DNA of 60,939 bases, the filler included. It is 9 parts of 9 records of this genome, joined end to end, with 100 filler letters (N's around TTAATTAATTAA, not from the genome) between each part and the next. Parts side by side here need not be neighbours in the genome. Positions count along the whole stretch, not along the records: positions 29,661 to 35,220 come from SRR31156797_60759; 8 more parts are not named here. One strand, 5' to 3'. Every line of letters starts with the position of its first letter. Within the stretch, counting starts at the first letter, position 1. A program made the translations under genes and the position numbers. The notes beneath the pieces were generated by a model. The model was not told the origin of the DNA. It did no database searches and was given only the letters and a program-made list of their open reading frames with translations. Of the stretch, positions 25,176-35,220 are shown piece by piece.

Positions 25176-26237
25176 ATGAGTGACATGATGAAAGAAAGAA
25201 CAGAAGGGATAAAGGAAACCCTTCCCGACGGGATTTCGCTGGAGATCCGGAAAGATGGGGAGCTGGTATTCCATAGCCGCGGGAAGTGGCTCTATCCCCT
25301 CTTCGAAGTGGAGGAGTTTCTGGACCGGAGCGGCTTGAAGGCCGGAGAGTTGAAACTGCACGACCGGATCGCCGGCCGGGCCGCGGCCTCTCTGATCTGC
25401 CGGATGGGATTCGGTCGCTGCCGGATCGATACCATAAGCGAGCACGCCCTCGCGGTCTTCGAGGGGGAAGGCGTTCTCTGCGCCTATGACACCCTGGTTG
25501 AGAAGATCCTCTGCAAGACGGAGGATATCATCAGTTCCGACATGGATCTGGATGAGGTCTACGCCCTGCTGAAGAGACGGGCCGGTCTCATACAAGGCGT
25601 GGATCTGGATATAAAGAATCTGAAGGCGGGCTACGAGGGGAAAACGGTTCTGAACGGACTGGATCTGAATATGAAGGCCGGTGAGCTTCTGGTCGTCACC
25701 GGGGACAACGGCGCCGGGAAGTCCACCCTGATGAAAAGCATCGTGGGGATCCTTCCCGTTCAGTCGGGAGAGATCCGTCTGGGCGAGGCCGGCAGGAACG
25801 GGAACGGAGGCTCCTCTGGCATCGCCTATGTGAATCAGGCTCCCCGGGACAGCGGATTCCCCGTCAGCGCCCGGGAGATCGTGGAGATCGGCTGCGTGGG
25901 CCGCAAGCTCGGCTCTGCCGTACGGAAGCATGAGGTGGAGATCGCCATGAGGCGGACGGGCTGCTTCGCCCTGCGGGACAGGAACTTCCATACCCTTTCG
26001 GGAGGAGAAAAGCAGAGGGTCTCCCTGGCGCGCTGCCTCTGTCAGAAAGCGGGGCTGATCCTGCTGGATGAGCCGACCTCCTTTCTGGACGCCGATTCGA
26101 AGGAAGAGTTTCTGGATCTGCTGGATATGATCGCGAAAAACCATCTTCCCACCATGATTCTGGTCTCCCATGACCATGAATGGATCTCCCGCCTCGGCTG
26201 GCCCGTCAGAGAGCTGAGGGAGGGGAGGCTATGCTAG
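25176..26237 (+). CDS. DUF1893 (TM1506-like) domain fused to a metal-type ABC ATPase
   Basis: N-terminal ~135 aa with LHDRIAGRAAA...ISEHAL...YDTLVEKILCKTE; then GDNGAGKST, LSGGEKQR, LLDEPT, VSHD. Confidence 0.75.
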   Translation: MSDMMKERTEGIKETLPDGISLEIRKDGELVFHSRGKWLYPLFEVEEFLDRSGLKAGELKLHDRIAGRAAASLICRMGFGRCRIDTISEHALAVFEGEGVLCAYDTLVEKILCKTEDIISSDMDLDEVYALLKRRAGLIQGVDLDIKNLKAGYEGKTVLNGLDLNMKAGELLVVTGDNGAGKSTLMKSIVGILPVQSGEIRLGEAGRNGNGGSSGIAYVNQAPRDSGFPVSAREIVEIGCVGRKLGSAVRKHEVEIAMRRTGCFALRDRNFHTLSGGEKQRVSLARCLCQKAGLILLDEPTSFLDADSKEEFLDLLDMIAKNHLPTMILVSHDHEWISRLGWPVRELREGRLC

Positions 26238-29660: not shown

Positions 29661-30249
29661 AGGTGGTCACCATGGTCCGGGGCCGCTCGACGTCGCCGAG
29701 CCAGAGCATCGCGCGCAGGATCGGGGCCAGTCCCTTGGCGGTGGCGATCAGCAGGTCGCGCACCAGCCGTTTGCGCGCCGCGGCCGCGAGGTAGCCCTGC
29801 CGCATCCGGATCAAGGTCGCCTTCAATTCGCGTTCGCATTGCAGGCGCACGTCGGCCTTGCCGAACTTCAGCGACTCGAACGGGTCGTTGCCCAGCACGG
29901 TCTGGTGCGTCAGTTGAAAGTCGAGAAACTCGACCCCGAAGACATCGGCCGACCGTTTGATATAGAACGTCGTCATCAGCAGCGGGGGCGACAGGTGCTG
30001 CTTGCGCATCGACTTGGCCAGTGCGGCTAGCGCGTTCAGCGCCGCGGTGTCGACCTGTTTCAGAACGAGGACCGTGTTAATGTCACTGACGCCGGGCCGG
30101 TAATCGGCCGTCAGGGCGCTGCCGACGACCGTGATGCTGCTGCGATTGTCTGCCAACCCGGTCCGGAGGTGATATTCCAACGACCGGATGGGTTCCTGAA
30201 TGGCCTGCGGCAGTGCGTTCAGTATCAGATCGCTCCGCGTTTCTGTCAT
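29661..30249 (-). CDS. Nucleotidyltransferase-fold protein (3' truncated)
   Basis: VVGSA...SDINTVLV and SADVFGVEFLD...LRLQCERE-type motifs. Confidence 0.7.
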
Positions 30250-30330: not shown

Positions 30331-30358
30331 GCAAGGGCGAATCATGATTCGCCCCTAC
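30331..30358 (-). repeat. GTAG-type REP-like palindrome
   Basis: Perfect 20-bp palindrome GGGCGAATCATGATTCGCCC (30335-30354); minus strand begins GTAG. Confidence 0.65.
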
Positions 30359-30568: not shown

Positions 30569-31012
30569 ATGGCACTGGTACAGTTTGGTAGAAGAAATGC
30601 GAATCCGTTGTCAAGACTCCACAACGAGGTGGACGATCTGTTCGATGGCTTCTTCCGGGGTCTCGACAAACCGTTGGCGGGCTACAAGGCCTGGCCGACG
30701 ATCGACGTGGCCGAGCAGGACGACGCGATCATCGTGCGGGCGGAAGTGGCCGGCTGCAAGCCCGAAGAGATCGACATCTCTGTATACGGCAACACGCTGA
30801 CCATCAGCGGCGAGAAGCAGCAGAAAAAGGAAGAGAAGGACAAGGGCTACTATCACATGGAGAGCACGTACGGGAGTTTTCGGCGGGAGATTACCCTGCC
30901 CACCGACGTGGACAACTCCAAGGTCCAGGCCACCTGTACCGACGGTGTGCTCTCGATCACGCTGCCCAAAGCCGAGGTGAGCAAGGCCGTGAAGGTCCAA
31001 GTCAAGAACTAA
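30569..31012 (+). CDS. Hsp20 / alpha-crystallin small heat-shock protein
   Basis: WPTIDVAE, LTISGEK, YGSFRREITLP, DGVLSITLPK; AGGAGG RBS. Confidence 0.95.
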   Translation: MALVQFGRRNANPLSRLHNEVDDLFDGFFRGLDKPLAGYKAWPTIDVAEQDDAIIVRAEVAGCKPEEIDISVYGNTLTISGEKQQKKEEKDKGYYHMESTYGSFRREITLPTDVDNSKVQATCTDGVLSITLPKAEVSKAVKVQVKN

Positions 31013-31039: not shown

Positions 31040-31079
31040 AGGCCGCCTGTGCGACAGTGCAGGTGGCCTGTTCTCTTTT
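31040..31079 (+). terminator. Intrinsic terminator after hsp20
   Basis: AGGCCGCCTGTGC-gaca-GTGCAGGTGGCCT stem (with G-U pairs) then a pyrimidine tract. Confidence 0.65.
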
Positions 31080-31258: not shown

Positions 31259-33049
31259 CTACACCAACTCCGGGTCAGTCGTCACCTCGACCAGGCAGGG
31301 GCCCTCGTGCGCGAACGCCTGCTCCAGGGTCTGGTCCAGATCGCCCGGCTGCTTGACATGCAGACCCAGGGCGCCGCAGTTCTCGGCGTATCTGGCGAAA
31401 TCCGGGTTGTGCAGGGACGTTTCCCACACGGGCAGTTGGCTGGTGCGTTGTTCCGTGGAGATCTTGCCCAGTTCGCGATTGTTCAGCAGGATGTGGGTGA
31501 TGTTCATCTGGTACTTGACGGCGGTGCACAACTCGCCCATGTACTGGCCGAACCCGCCATCCCCCGTCACCGCCACGATCGGTCGGTCCGGAGCCGCGGC
31601 CCAGGCCCCCATGGCAGCGGGGTAGCCGAAGCCGATCGATCCGAGATAGCCCGACATGAGGATCGATTGCTGTTGGCATTCGAAGTAGCGACCGAACGAA
31701 TAGGTGTTGTTCCCCACGTCCACCGCGACGACCGCGTCCGCGGGCACGTGACGGCCGAGCGCCGCAAACAGAGCAGCGGAACTGAGCCCTTTGCCCTGAT
31801 CGACCGCGGCCCGGTTTTGTTTTTCCGTCCGCCACGTCTGCCACTTCTCGGCAATCTCCGCCCGGCGGTTCTGCCAGGGTCCCGCGTGGCCCCGCAGCGC
31901 GTCCAGGAACAGATGCGCCGTGGTGCCGATCTCGCCGTACACCGGGACGGTGACGGCGTGGAACTTGCCCAGAATCATGGGATCGTAGTCGACCTGAATG
32001 GTGGGGCGGTCGGGGGTGATACCGGTATGTTGAGAGAACGAGGCGCCGAAGACGAGCAAGAGATCGGAGGCGTTCATAAAGTGACTGGCGATCAGCGTTC
32101 CGCTGCGGCCGAGGACACCGCACGCCAGCGGATGGTCGTCACGGATCAGCCCTTTGCCCTTGAACGTGGTGATCACGGGGCAGCTCAGCGTCTCGGCGAG
32201 TGCGATAATCGCCTCCATCTGGAACCGCGCGCCATGTCCGACGATGATCACCGGCTGCTGGGCCGAGCGCAACAGTGCCACCGCCCGGTCCACCGACTCT
32301 CGCGGCGGCGCAATCTCCAGCGCCGTGCAGCGCCCTTCCGGGCCGGAGGCAGCCGCATCGTCCGGCGCAGGCAGCGTCTGCACCTCGTTCGGGAAGACCA
32401 GATGGGCGACGTCCCGTTTCAGGATCGCGTGCTTCAGCGCCAGCGTCATCAGCTCGGCATGGCGACTCGTGTTCAGGACCGTTTGACTCCAGGCCGCCAC
32501 CGAACGGAACGCCGCGGCCAGATCGACCTCCTGGAACGCGCCCGGACCGAGGACTTGCGTGTCCACTTGGCCGGTCAAGGCCAGGATGGGAACGCGGTCC
32601 ATGCGGGCATCCCACAAACCCGTCAGAAGGTTGGTCGCGCCGGGCCCGGCGATACTCAGGCAGGCTGCCGGTCGGCCCGTGAGTTTGGCGTACGCCGAAG
32701 CGGCAAACGCGGCCGCACCTTCGTGCCGTACACCGATGAAGGCCAGGTCGCCCTGTTTCTGCCGTCGCCGAATCGCTTCGGCCAGTCCGAGATTCGAATG
32801 CCCGACCATGCCAAACACGTGCGTCACACCCCAGTTGATCATGGTTTCGACCATGACGTCGGAGACCGTCCGCACCCGGGGCGATTCTCCCTCGACGGCG
32901 GGCTGGGCCGGTTTCGGCTGGGTCGACTCAACCGGCTCGAACTCGGAGGCCGGTGCCCCACACAGGGGGCACGCCTCCGGCGGTTCCGATCCTTGATGGA
33001 TATAGCCGCACACACTGCAACGCCATTGTTTGCCGGCCGTCTCAGACAT
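31259..33049 (-). CDS. ThDP-dependent pyruvate oxidase-like enzyme with an N-terminal rubredoxin-like domain
   Basis: WRCSVCGY...CPLCG; VRHEGAAAF, GPGATN and GDGG...NN ThDP motifs. Confidence 0.88.
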   Translation of the reverse strand: MSETAGKQWRCSVCGYIHQGSEPPEACPLCGAPASEFEPVESTQPKPAQPAVEGESPRVRTVSDVMVETMINWGVTHVFGMVGHSNLGLAEAIRRRQKQGDLAFIGVRHEGAAAFAASAYAKLTGRPAACLSIAGPGATNLLTGLWDARMDRVPILALTGQVDTQVLGPGAFQEVDLAAAFRSVAAWSQTVLNTSRHAELMTLALKHAILKRDVAHLVFPNEVQTLPAPDDAAASGPEGRCTALEIAPPRESVDRAVALLRSAQQPVIIVGHGARFQMEAIIALAETLSCPVITTFKGKGLIRDDHPLACGVLGRSGTLIASHFMNASDLLLVFGASFSQHTGITPDRPTIQVDYDPMILGKFHAVTVPVYGEIGTTAHLFLDALRGHAGPWQNRRAEIAEKWQTWRTEKQNRAAVDQGKGLSSAALFAALGRHVPADAVVAVDVGNNTYSFGRYFECQQQSILMSGYLGSIGFGYPAAMGAWAAAPDRPIVAVTGDGGFGQYMGELCTAVKYQMNITHILLNNRELGKISTEQRTSQLPVWETSLHNPDFARYAENCGALGLHVKQPGDLDQTLEQAFAHEGPCLVEVTTDPELV

Positions 33050-33084
33050 AACCTATCCCCTCGTCTTCTTCACCTGCACTCGAC

Positions 33085-33585
33085 CTACTTGACCTCGAAG
33101 AAGCGATCCTTCGGCACGTTGCAGACCGGGCAGTTATCCGGCGCCTCTCCGATGACGGTGTTGCCACAAACCGGACAGACGTAAATCTTGGCCGCCGGCA
33201 GGTCCGACCCCGCCTTGACGGCGTTCAGGGCTTCGCTGTACAGGTTGTGATGGATCTCTTCGACGGCCAGTGCGTTCTTGAACGAGAACATGGCGGGCTT
33301 GTTGTCTTCCTTTTCCGCCTCGGCCAGGAAATCCGGATACATCGTCTTGAACTCGTAGCCTTCGCCGTCGACGGCCGTCTGGAGATTCTCGGCCGTACTC
33401 TTGATGCCGCCCAGGACACGCAGGTGCGCGTGGGCATGGATCGTCTCGGCGTCGGCGGCCGCCCGAAACAGCTTGGCCACCTGGGTCAGCCCGTCGTCTT
33501 CCGCCTTCTTGGCAAACGCCAGATAGGTGCGGTTGGCCTGGCTCTCTCCTGCGAAGGCCGCCTGTAGATTGTCGCTTGTTGCCAT
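33085..33585 (-). CDS. rbr: Rubrerythrin
   Basis: AFAGESQAN, AETIHA, GEGYE...MYP, VEEIH; C-terminal CPVCG...CPVC. Confidence 0.93.
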   Translation of the reverse strand: MATSDNLQAAFAGESQANRTYLAFAKKAEDDGLTQVAKLFRAAADAETIHAHAHLRVLGGIKSTAENLQTAVDGEGYEFKTMYPDFLAEAEKEDNKPAMFSFKNALAVEEIHHNLYSEALNAVKAGSDLPAAKIYVCPVCGNTVIGEAPDNCPVCNVPKDRFFEVK

Positions 33586-33612
33586 GGTAACATTCTCCTT
33601 TCTGTGGTTGAA

Positions 33613-35028
33613 TCAAACGTGATCGATCGGTGTGTATTCCGATATTTCTGAATTCGCTGTGCAAAGGTCCTCCGGCGACAGCCCGTGCACGCTGTCCTTA
33701 CCGGTCAGCCGGGCGAAATCCTTGAGCTCTTCCGTGCAGACCTTGAGGTAGTTCTCCAGCCGCTTCGCCGACAGATCCACGTCCAGCCGGGACCGCAGCT
33801 CCGGGTCCTGCGTCGTGATCCCCACGGGGCAGTTGCCCGTGTCGCAGATACGGTACTGTTGGCAGCCGATGGCCATCAGAGCCGCTGTCGCCAGCGCGAT
33901 TGCGTCGGCGCCCAGGGCCAGGGCCTTGGCGAAGTCGGCCGAGACGCGCAGCCCTCCGGTGATGATCAGCGACACGCTGCTCGCCTCTTGCTCATCCAGG
34001 AACCGCCGGGCTCGACACAGGGCGAAGATGGTGGGCACGGAGGTGGCTGCCTTGACGAACTTCAGGGCCGCGCCGGTGGCCCCGGCGCGCCCGTCGATGG
34101 TGACAAAATCCGGCCCGGCCGACAGCGCCACCTTCATGTCGGCTTCGATGTGGCCGGCCGCCAGTTTGATGCCGATCGGTTTGCCGCCGGTCTTCTCGCG
34201 CAGCTCGTCGACGGTGCGCTTGAGGTCCTCGGCCGAACGGATGTCGGTGAAGCGTGACGGGCTGATGATAGCCTGGCCTTCCGCCCGGCCCCGAATCTCA
34301 GCGACCTCGCGGGTGACTTTCTTGCCCGGCAGATGCCCCCCCATGCCCGGCTTGGCCGACTGGCCGATTTTGATTTCGACGGCGTCGACCGCGCGCAGGT
34401 GTTCTTCGGTGACGCTGTACCTGTTCGGCACATACTCGAAGATGTACTTGTGCGACGCTTTCAACGCCTCCGGCAGAATGCCGCCTTCGCCGGAGCCCAT
34501 CGCCGTTTGCGCTGCGGCGCTGCCCCTGGCCAGGGCCAACTGCGCTTCGCGCGACAAGGCTCCGAACGACATGTGCGAGACAAACAGCGGCGTCTCGATC
34601 ACCAGCGGATGGTCGGCCTTCGGCCCGATGACCGTCTGTGCATTGACGGGCTCATCCTCGTTCAGCGGCACCGTGGCCAACTGGGCCCCCTTGATGAGTA
34701 TCTCGTCCCAGGAGACGGTCTGGATCTGCGTTCGCATCGGCTCGACGATCGAAGCACCGCTCTCGGCCATCCGGTGGATCGCGTTCATGTATCCCTCCAC
34801 CGCGTCGGTCGGCCGGTTCCACCGCTTCAGGTACGCGTCCTGATCGATCCCCACCGACTCGAGTGTCGCAGCCGCGGGTTCCGCTTCCGCATCCGCCACC
34901 AGAAAGAACTCGGACTTGGGCGACCCGCACACCGGACACGTCCAGTCGTCGGGCAGCTCGTCCCACGGGGTCCCTTCCTTCTCCTCGTCGTAGAGGTACG
35001 AACAGAGCCCACACTGGTACACTGCCAT
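33613..35028 (-). CDS. Rubredoxin-fused glutamate-synthase-like FMN protein
   Basis: [11 protein letters not shown]...[49 protein letters not shown]; start MAVYQ behind AAGGA. Confidence 0.88.
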
Positions 35029-35220
35029 AGCACTTGTCCTTTCTTTCGTTGCCCGGTCTCGTTCACAGCGGCGGTCACTACGTCTTGTCCTTTGCCCCGC
35101 GCGACTGACCGCCTCGGCATTTGTCACACAGCCCCTCCACCGTCACCCGTACGCCCGTCACCTCGCAACGGCGTCGAATCTCCTCCGGAACCCGCAGCGC
35201 ATCGTACTGCGGATCGGTGA

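Follow-up and report, generated by a model that had tools for sequence, protein, structure and literature searches.

A stretch of DNA of 60,939 nucleotides (the window) holds, on one of its contigs, three co-oriented genes for enzymes that each carry a rubredoxin (Rd) domain: a glutamate-synthase-like flavoprotein (Rd-GltB2), a rubrerythrin (Rbr) and a pyruvate-oxidase-like enzyme (Rd-POX). Together with a truncated regulator gene directly upstream, they very probably form a peroxide-defence operon. The chances are evenly balanced that Rd-GltB2 and Rd-POX both act in it as substrate-driven, NAD-independent Rd donors to Rbr, a reading that draws on the cofactor motifs of the predicted proteins.

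The operon contig (29661-35220; 5,560 bp, GC 0.63) carries three open reading frames (ORFs) on the minus strand, at 35028-33613 (471 aa), 33585-33085 (166 aa) and 33049-31259 (596 aa). The ORFs are separated by 27 and 35 nt, and a purine-rich stretch resembling a ribosome-binding site lies ahead of each ATG. Each of the three proteins has two CxxC motifs, and Pfam assigned domains to all of them above cut-off: Rubredoxin (residues 4-41) and Glu_synthase (122-443) in Rd-GltB2, Rubrerythrin (5-119) and RUBY_RBDX (135-162) in Rbr, and RUBY_RBDX (9-38) and TPP_enzyme_N/M/C in Rd-POX. The trio of Rd-domain enzymes reported in a preliminary description of this DNA was therefore confirmed, although none of the three proteins reached an NCBIfam equivalog cut-off. 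Rd-GltB2 carries an Rd domain of the classical kind, with a 21-residue spacer; on Rd-POX and Rbr, it is rubrerythrin-type, with a short spacer. The preliminary description had missed this distinction, as well as the contig bounds and a Fur/PerR-family gene fragment upstream.

This fragment (35078-35218, minus strand) is the 3' end of a regulator gene, 46 codons and a stop, which is cut by the contig end and terminates 49 nt upstream of Rd-GltB2. It was identified with a hidden Markov model built from related loci and run on every six-frame segment of the window (E=5.4e-6; next best 0.36), and it shares 38% identity with the regulator of one related locus, L092 (pairwise E 1e-8); by itself, it had no match in Pfam and NCBIfam searches. 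Among the full-length regulators that neighbour related loci, PerR was the best NCBIfam model in three of four, all below cut-off. The truncated gene is probably a perR, its subtype lying beyond proof from 46 residues. At the other end, a 13-bp hairpin (31040-31069) whose tails are T-rich on either strand, between the convergent ends of hsp20 and pox, is likely the terminator that closes the operon (the consensus-based hairpin scan found 10 sites, compared with 4.3 expected by shuffling). Because the regulator fragment lies directly upstream and the hairpin follows pox, the gene order is probably perR-Rd-GltB2-rbr-Rd-POX, one gene longer than first described. A promoter scan of the contig found no sigma-70-like promoter upstream of the operon, presumably because the promoter lies past the contig end.

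Rd-GltB2 (33613-35028, minus strand) comprises a rubredoxin domain, a flexible linker and a glutamate-synthase-type flavin mononucleotide (FMN) barrel with a [3Fe-4S] motif, as judged from Pfam, fold and tree. Its classical Rd domain (34906-35019, minus strand; PF00301, E 2.5e-10), with C6, C9, C31 and C34, had rubredoxins as its best PDB matches. The closest folds to the whole protein, in an AlphaFold model with a mean confidence (pLDDT) of 88 and a disordered linker at residues 48-63, are glutamate synthases (GltS). The [3Fe-4S] ligand motif CX5CX4C (C389, C395 and C400; 33829-33864, minus strand) stands 82 residues before the C-terminus and is invariant in 61/61 Rd-clade rows. This distance is 82 in 98 of 101 Rd-clade loci, compared with 84-92 in the listed Rieske/CDGSH forms and 88-90 in Fer4 forms; it also occurs in 17 rows of a mixed 'other' bin. 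In a FastTree phylogeny of 126 de-duplicated GltB2 rows, a rubredoxin clade (61 rows, window protein included) is sister to a Rieske/CDGSH clade (41 rows), and both are separate from 4Fe-4S forms that mostly lie beside glutaminase and GXGXG genes. Forms linked to a glutamine amidotransferase (GATase) bear 4Fe-4S dicluster motifs, and the window protein's own family has Rd, Rieske or CDGSH carriers. The same clade as the window protein also holds a member named Lachnospiraceae.

Residues E181, K220, Q223, K226, R246, K288 and T318, which we take to be the FMN/2-oxoglutarate-site residues of GltS, are invariant in all 102 rows of the combined Rd and Rieske/CDGSH family, as are the three cluster cysteines; the Azospirillum brasilense equivalents, with numbering counted from the PDB-match alignment, are E886, K931, Q934, K937, R957, K999 and T1030. 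The loop HDIYSIED, presumably the ammonia-tunnel loop, is invariant in 14/14 Fer4/GATase-type rows and degenerate in the 61 Rd and 41 Rieske/CDGSH rows. Pfam found neither a GATase nor an NAD-binding domain in Rd-GltB2, GATase or GXGXG genes neighbour 0/100 Rd-clade loci, and the NCBIfam model for the glutamate synthase large subunit scored 159.8 bits against a cut-off of 1047. Because the glutaminase and GXGXG neighbours are missing and the ammonia loop is degenerate, Rd-GltB2 is predicted not to be a glutamate synthase, as the preliminary description had suspected from the absent amidotransferase domain. It probably retains the flavin and the glutamate/2-oxoglutarate site. Some databases use the name MgsC/GlxD-like (methylamine-glutamate methyltransferase C, expected to have GlxB/GlxC-type neighbours); we rejected that identity, since the carrier-less loci with GATase and GXGXG neighbours (L174, L175 and L271), which we take to be the MgsC/GlxD-like ones, branch apart.

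Several unusual relatives were seen alongside. A separate Rd-GltB2 lineage (L262:3987-7115 and L263) is flanked by two cytochrome c proteins, one of them DUF6529-like; one GltB2 of 733 aa (P0014) has five rubredoxin matches; and a further, distantly related member of the Glu_synthase family is encoded close to Rd-GltB2 at L083:1203-2813 and L084:2383-3846.

The second gene of the operon (33085-33585, minus strand) encodes a short-form rubrerythrin of 166 aa. It combines a ferritin-like diiron domain holding two ExxH motifs with a C-terminal Rd-like domain, as a rubrerythrin should, and we take the ExxH motifs together with E14, Y21, E75, E78 and Y83 to be diiron ligand-type positions. The NCBIfam equivalog scored 103.6 against a cut-off of 200.

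Rd-POX (31259-33049, minus strand) joins a rubrerythrin-type Rd domain (32936-33025, minus strand; C11, C14, C27 and C30; PF21349, E 1.8e-15) through a linker to an anchor-less, PoxB-like enzyme of the thiamine diphosphate (ThDP)/flavin adenine dinucleotide (FAD) type, on the evidence of Pfam and fold. Among non-POX domains, those closest to its Rd are the C-terminal domains of Rbr. The best PDB match by both sequence and fold is Escherichia coli PoxB, especially its truncated form 3EYA, and the alignment stops at PoxB residue 528 of 572. The AlphaFold model has a pLDDT of 92, with a disordered linker (residues 45-53) leading to the Rd. Because the chain ends seven residues past the last strand in 103/103 matches, the enzyme has no membrane anchor. 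The ThDP N/M/C domains, the catalytic Glu, the GDG...N motif and the glycines and Asp of the FAD domain are kept (E110 in 81/82 rows, D497 in 81/82, and G271, G273, G335 and D354 in 82/82). H84, H341, Y450, Y468 and K529 set the active site apart; at K529, the position of Phe465 in PoxB and Phe479 in Lactobacillus POX, 81 of 82 rows have Lys and one has Arg. A carrier (Rd, Rieske or both) is present in 112 of 116 parsed close homologues, hybrids with Rd plus Rieske among them, and the nearest relative of the window protein (83% core identity) is such a hybrid; CDGSH domains occur on POX at two gammaproteobacterial loci. The frequency of carrier motifs and the existence of Rd+Rieske hybrids argue for a redox rather than a Zn-binding role of the POX carrier.

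A second, unrelated Rd-POX family (P0254-P0373) gave 1,006 matches at 32-38% identity with its own invariant active-site residues; many of its names are archaeal (Asgard, Bathyarchaeota, Methanosarcinales), and one member (L131:1270-3045) adjoins GltB2. Another POX (P0130, 889 aa) has an SdhB-like 2Fe-2S/4Fe-4S module plus two Rd domains. A predicted complex of the POX and GltB2 cores scored 0.00, which is no evidence in either direction, and searches of the ESM Atlas and of plasmids (8 records) added no function.

We asked how often these genes travel together. On the GltB2 side, we took the best 80 of 143 metagenome loci, about 15 of which are one redundant lineage without Rbr, and counted neighbours within 3.5 kb: Rbr lay near 36, Fur/PerR near 15, POX near 4, and Rbr plus POX near 3. 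When only the 37 loci flanked by 1.5 kb or more on each side were considered, these numbers were 17, 11, 2 and 2, respectively; Rbr adjoins 9 of 13 Rd-GltB2 loci sampled from GTDB. Thus, the expectation in the preliminary description that the trio is conserved as a unit across anaerobes was not borne out, with POX beside only 4/80 loci and the full trio in 3/80. On the POX side (best 80 of 247 GTDB loci), GltB2 was found within 3.5 kb in 37. We also sampled 740 genomes of Desulfobacterota, Planctomycetota, Verrucomicrobiota and Acidobacteriota, leaving out four centre genomes and counting GltB2 at E<=1e-95, which drops 4Fe-4S and Mgs-like forms. Seventeen of 22 genomes with POX also had GltB2, compared with 47/740 overall (Fisher p 4e-18, inflated by kinship), although within the Desulfobacterota sample there was no association. 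Nine of the 17 co-occurring pairs are adjacent, only one of them rubredoxin-type, and 30 of the 47 GltB2 genomes have no POX.

The full trio is rare, being found at nine loci besides the window, none with the window's gene order. Seven are of a Pontiella type, pox-gltB2-perR-rbr (L042, L052, L055, L064, L065, L139 and L257), with L042, L055 and L065 coming from Pontiellaceae isolates, and L109 reads pox-rbr-gltB2. The ninth, L122:1262-9495, combines rbr, a rubredoxin-membrane-dihaem cytochrome c fusion, a Rieske-POX, a carrier-less GltB2 with a hydrophobic N-terminus where the carrier would stand, cytochrome c peroxidase and an AhpC-kinase fusion. The eight POX-linked GltB2 rows in the Rd clade do not form one clade (approximately unbiased (AU) test, p 3e-62), so the POX-GltB2 link has been gained or lost repeatedly. 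Other peroxide genes accompany single Rd-GltB2 loci: desulfoferrodoxin at L199, KatG at L091, and cytochrome c peroxidase with AhpC at L122. Both families are large: each query drew at least about 8,000 candidates at E<=1e-50, and for POX this number may include other ThDP enzymes.

Of 47 linked POX-GltB2 loci, 40 allowed the carriers of both enzymes to be read, and these matched in every case (29 Rieske, 9 Rd and 2 CDGSH); the other seven, including the discordant L122, are truncated or have no readable carrier. In a thinned tree, Rd-bearing POX from loci group as a single clade (51 of 82 rows, support 99.8), and with the Rd+Rieske hybrids added, the Rd forms are scattered across several branches. 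We had considered many independent, concerted carrier swaps and cut this idea back, since the Rd forms of GltB2 make up a single clade and the Rieske/CDGSH forms another; given both trees, the concordance reflects two or three deep phylogenetic events rather than forty. Rbr is nearby in 51/100 Rd-clade loci and 0/36 Rieske/CDGSH loci, whereas a Rieske-fused, ferric-reductase-like membrane protein (MsrQ-like haem protein) is nearby in 0/100 and 9/36, respectively, and Fur is near 0/36 Rieske/CDGSH loci. The electron sinks of the two groups are exclusive. Apart from this, a conserved protein of ~290 aa with no Pfam match at 1e-4 occurs in 24/80 POX loci with Rieske-type POX/GltB2 (for example at L026:7633-8499).

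In the mechanism that we favour, H2O2 would relieve PerR repression of the operon. Rd-GltB2 would run a glutamate synthase FMN site backwards, converting L-glutamate (or a related amino acid) to a 2-oxo acid and ammonia, with electrons passing from FMN through the [3Fe-4S] cluster to the tethered rubredoxin. Rd-POX would oxidatively decarboxylate a 2-oxo acid (pyruvate, or 2-oxoglutarate from GltB2) and pass electrons from ThDP through FAD to its own tethered rubredoxin, which would stand in for the membrane anchor and quinone of PoxB. Both rubredoxins would then reduce rubrerythrin, which would convert H2O2 to water; the two donors would work in parallel, GltB2 as the core donor and POX as an optional second one. 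Rubredoxin potentials lie near 0 mV, and carriers of such high potential should favour oxidation over synthesis. Ferredoxin oxidoreductases are oxygen-labile; both proposed routes would bypass them as well as NAD(P)H, which would fit a PerR regulon. Gene order, domains, cofactor motifs and linkage statistics are what the data show; the chemistry we infer throughout.

Amino acids and 2-oxo acids are candidate donors because the substrate site is invariant, the ammonia loop is lost and a PoxB-like partner recurs. That GltB2 uses glutamate falls slightly short of an even chance. For POX, pyruvate may be the substrate or may equally well not be, and 2-oxoglutarate and some third compound are each about half as probable as pyruvate. 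Since POX usually occurs with GltB2, but not the reverse, and has an invariant Lys and His, one may speculate that it consumes the 2-oxoglutarate made by GltB2.

The role in O2/H2O2 defence proposed in the preliminary description stands as far as the peroxide context is concerned, which includes the perR fragment and the Rbr and Fur/PerR neighbours counted above. It is also seen in the closest published protein, Clostridioides difficile CD0828 (CD630_08280, 'GltD'), a 480-aa Rd-GltB2 in an rbr-perR-sor(rbo)-CD0828 operon (PMC11980386). CD0828 is induced by H2O2 or air, its knockout is 3-5 log more sensitive to H2O2, and its Rd holds iron, with a spectrum at 386/495 nm (PMC11980386). The part of the proposal that is disputed is efficient electron transfer from GltB2 to Rbr.

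Several points weigh against the mechanism; genuine counter-evidence comes from the slow transfer from CD0828 to Rbr and from the many loci that lack POX or Rbr. The Rd-GltB2 of the window matches the CD0828 type by published architecture rather than by direct sequence comparison, and with NADH and FMN, transfer from CD0828 to Rbr was slow, ~200 s (PMC11980386). Because of this and of the slow reduction by NADH, the authors doubt that CD0828 is the physiological donor and call the partners of Rbr unidentified (PMC11980386). The assayed protein was, for its part, under-loaded with iron at 1.2 Fe per monomer (PMC11980386), and a preprint reports synergy of Rbr and GltD, with 8.7 µM NADH used compared with a sum of 4.7 µM (bioRxiv 10.1101/2024.09.17.613384). 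The preprint proposes glutamate oxidation via NAD and assays with NADH (bioRxiv 10.1101/2024.09.17.613384); a word search of the main texts of both CD0828 papers found no glutamate assay, the donors tried being only NAD(P)H. Among our own data, POX is missing beside 76/80 Rd-GltB2 loci and GltB2 within 3.5 kb of 43/80 POX loci (many of the contigs being short), about half of the Rd-clade loci have no Rbr nearby, and Rd-POX occurs with neither GltB2 nor Rbr nearby at L009, L049, L060 and L069. The family-specific GltB2 residues E198 and R314 (the latter in 101/102 rows), unlike those of glutamate synthases, could mean another substrate. Pyruvate as the POX substrate is insecure, too, because H84, N140 and K529 differ from both PoxB and Lactobacillus POX.

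In a plainer account, the locus is a CD0828-type module as already known: GltB2 would be a weak NADH:rubredoxin reductase or an Rbr-independent protector (for instance a maker of 2-oxoglutarate), and POX, under shared regulation, would offer an O2-tolerant bypass for pyruvate and pass its electrons to some other acceptor. NADH does reduce CD0828 fully, though slowly, and the authors allow an Rbr-independent role (PMC11980386); the scarcity of POX beside Rd-GltB2 fits as well. We nonetheless consider this account unlikely, if the most serious of the alternatives, as Pfam shows no NAD-binding domain in Rd-GltB2, the substrate-site residues are invariant, and the POX-linked Rd-GltB2s are not one clade, which means that the link was repeatedly regained or retained. 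Moreover, L264:5433-7586 has a carrier-less POX directly downstream of rubrerythrin, in a genome where the GltB2 query had no match.

Rather improbable is a Lactobacillus-type oxidase that would turn pyruvate, Pi and O2 into acetyl phosphate, CO2 and H2O2, scavenging O2 while a GltB2-fed Rbr clears the peroxide. Rd-POX is indeed anchor-less, keeps the equivalents of R264 and E483 of the Lactobacillus enzyme (R315 in 77/82 rows, E533 in 82/82), and has 'pyruvate oxidase' (TIGR02720) as its best NCBIfam model, with 316 bits against a cut-off of 638. In contrast, H89 and F479 of the Lactobacillus enzyme are replaced by N140 and K529, the C-terminal extension of ~60 residues is absent, and a fused one-electron carrier, needless for an oxidase, is nearly universal among the homologues.

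Less probable still is a flow of electrons from POX through the rubredoxins into GltB2, for reductive amination of 2-oxoglutarate with free ammonia and with Rbr as a bystander. POX and GltB2 are the pair conserved across phyla, their carriers match wherever both can be read, and Rieske loci have no Rbr. On the other hand, most GltB2 genomes in the phylum samples have no POX, the PerR/Rbr context would be unexplained, and the rubredoxin potentials given above would be too high for the chemistry of GltS. That chemistry runs on low-potential clusters (PMC8097209). Finally, a non-redox carboligase or decarboxylase of the acetolactate-synthase kind with structural Zn in its CxxC domains, to which N140 (as in the motif of acetohydroxyacid synthases (AHAS)), the close rank of AHAS structures in the fold search and several acetolactate synthase-like database names point, is the least probable of all, given that PoxB is the best match in sequence and fold, that Rieske and CDGSH domains can take the place of the carrier, and that the CD0828 Rd binds iron (PMC11980386).

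Substrate-driven donation to Rbr may also be one case of something broader, which we consider a long shot: GltB2 and the PoxB-like enzyme would form a two-step, NAD-free pathway from glutamate through 2-oxoglutarate to succinate and CO2, releasing four electrons to carriers and sinks that could be exchanged. The sinks would be rubrerythrin with rubredoxin in anaerobes, the MsrQ-like haem protein with Rieske, or cytochrome c with cytochrome c peroxidase. Were this pathway true, it would show where C. difficile CD0828 draws its electrons, and the widespread Rieske-wired clusters would gain a role in oxidative-stress defence. If the donor roles hold, Rd-POX would represent a new ThDP/FAD subfamily, a 2-oxoacid:rubredoxin oxidoreductase, and a pair of very large uncharacterised families would have its first functional anchor. 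The operon makes the question of the donor for CD0828 and Rbr directly testable.

Since the operon genes sit on their own contig between N spacers, nothing in the window beyond that contig counts as their genomic context. The nine contigs range in GC from 0.38 to 0.63 and probably come from more than one organism; ORFs that run across spacers are artefacts. The operon contig also carries an Hsp20 gene convergent with the operon (30569-31012, plus strand; Pfam) and a truncated ORF of ~196 aa (29661-30249, minus strand) that looks nucleotidyltransferase-like by eye and had no Pfam or NCBIfam match; a plus-strand ORF at 31307-33184 and similar frames were treated as shadows of real genes. Two Logan contigs of the possible source run tile the operon stretch without differences, at depths of 32 and 29.8, and join in a 31-base node inside rbr; no single record holds all the genes, and the contigs are not independent support. 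A palindrome resembling repetitive extragenic palindromic (REP) elements at 30331-30358 has at least five further matches in the Logan contig that bears the gltB2 end, which suggests that both Logan contigs are from one genome. Elsewhere in the window, a separate contig (35321-41663, minus strand) holds a purine/pyrimidine catabolic cluster made up of three amidohydrolases and a molybdopterin xanthine-dehydrogenase-like protein, and at 25176-26237 (plus strand) a DUF1893 (TM1506) domain is fused to an ABC ATPase, followed by a metal-type ABC permease and a binding protein.

Compared with known systems, the operon shares most with that of CD0828: the Rd motif C(xx)C(x)21C(xx)C, a CX5CX4C motif 82 residues from the end (at 398 of 480 in CD0828), and the company of rbr and perR, which in the window are the adjacent rbr and the Fur/PerR fragment upstream. 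It differs in gene order, in the short 166-aa form of Rbr, and in the fourth place, taken by superoxide reductase there and by the Rd-fused PoxB-like enzyme here. With PoxB (3EY9/3EYA) and Lactobacillus pyruvate oxidase (1POW, 1Y9D), Rd-POX has in common the three-domain ThDP/FAD fold (TM-score 0.80, 28% identity), the catalytic Glu, the FQ loop and the GDG...N motif; unlike them, it lacks a C-terminal anchor or extension, has an N-terminal carrier, has Lys at F465/F479 and His at D27/G35, and stays under all NCBIfam cut-offs. Rd-GltB2 shares the FMN barrel, the [3Fe-4S] motif and the FMN/2-oxoglutarate-site residues with the glutamate synthase alpha FMN domain, split GltB1/B2/B3 and MgsC/GlxD-like systems. 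Those systems use 4Fe-4S or GltD, whereas the window family, a separate clade with a degenerate ammonia loop and no glutaminase or GXGXG partner, uses an Rd, Rieske or CDGSH carrier. Rieske-fused POX+GltB2 clusters, on which no paper was found in the literature searched, consist of the same two enzyme families, often adjacent (58-73% identity in the POX core and 45-52% in the GltB2 core), and differ in their Rieske or CDGSH carriers and in the sinks described above. Searches of a literature in which subscription papers lay mostly outside found no rubredoxin- or Rieske-fused pyruvate-oxidase-like enzyme and no link of one to GltB2. The GltB2-Rbr-PerR core is thus already published, and the homologue list in Table S1 of bioRxiv 2024.09.17.613384 may bear on how far the Rd-GltB2 family had been mapped; undescribed in the literature searched are the PoxB-like partner with its fused Rd and no anchor, as well as the bridge to Rieske-wired clusters.

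The nearest parallel in principle is the butyryl-CoA:oxygen oxidoreductase (BOOR) of Fusobacterium nucleatum, in which an Rd-fused dehydrogenase feeds a diiron reductase straight from a metabolite (PMC12288474). Membership in BOOR was rejected, since Pfam found neither the Bcd-EtfA-Rd fusion nor flavodiiron domains in the window proteins, and the likeness is one of analogy only. The catalytic parts are not homologous: BOOR pairs Bcd/EtfA with a flavodiiron protein that reduces O2, and the window has ThDP/FAD and FMN/[3Fe-4S] enzymes with a rubrerythrin for H2O2. What both have in common is the logic of an Rd-fused, substrate-oxidising flavoenzyme beside a diiron reductase, without NAD(P)H (PMC12288474). 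If substrate-driven donation to Rbr is true, this principle of metabolite-driven, NAD-independent detoxification would extend to peroxide.

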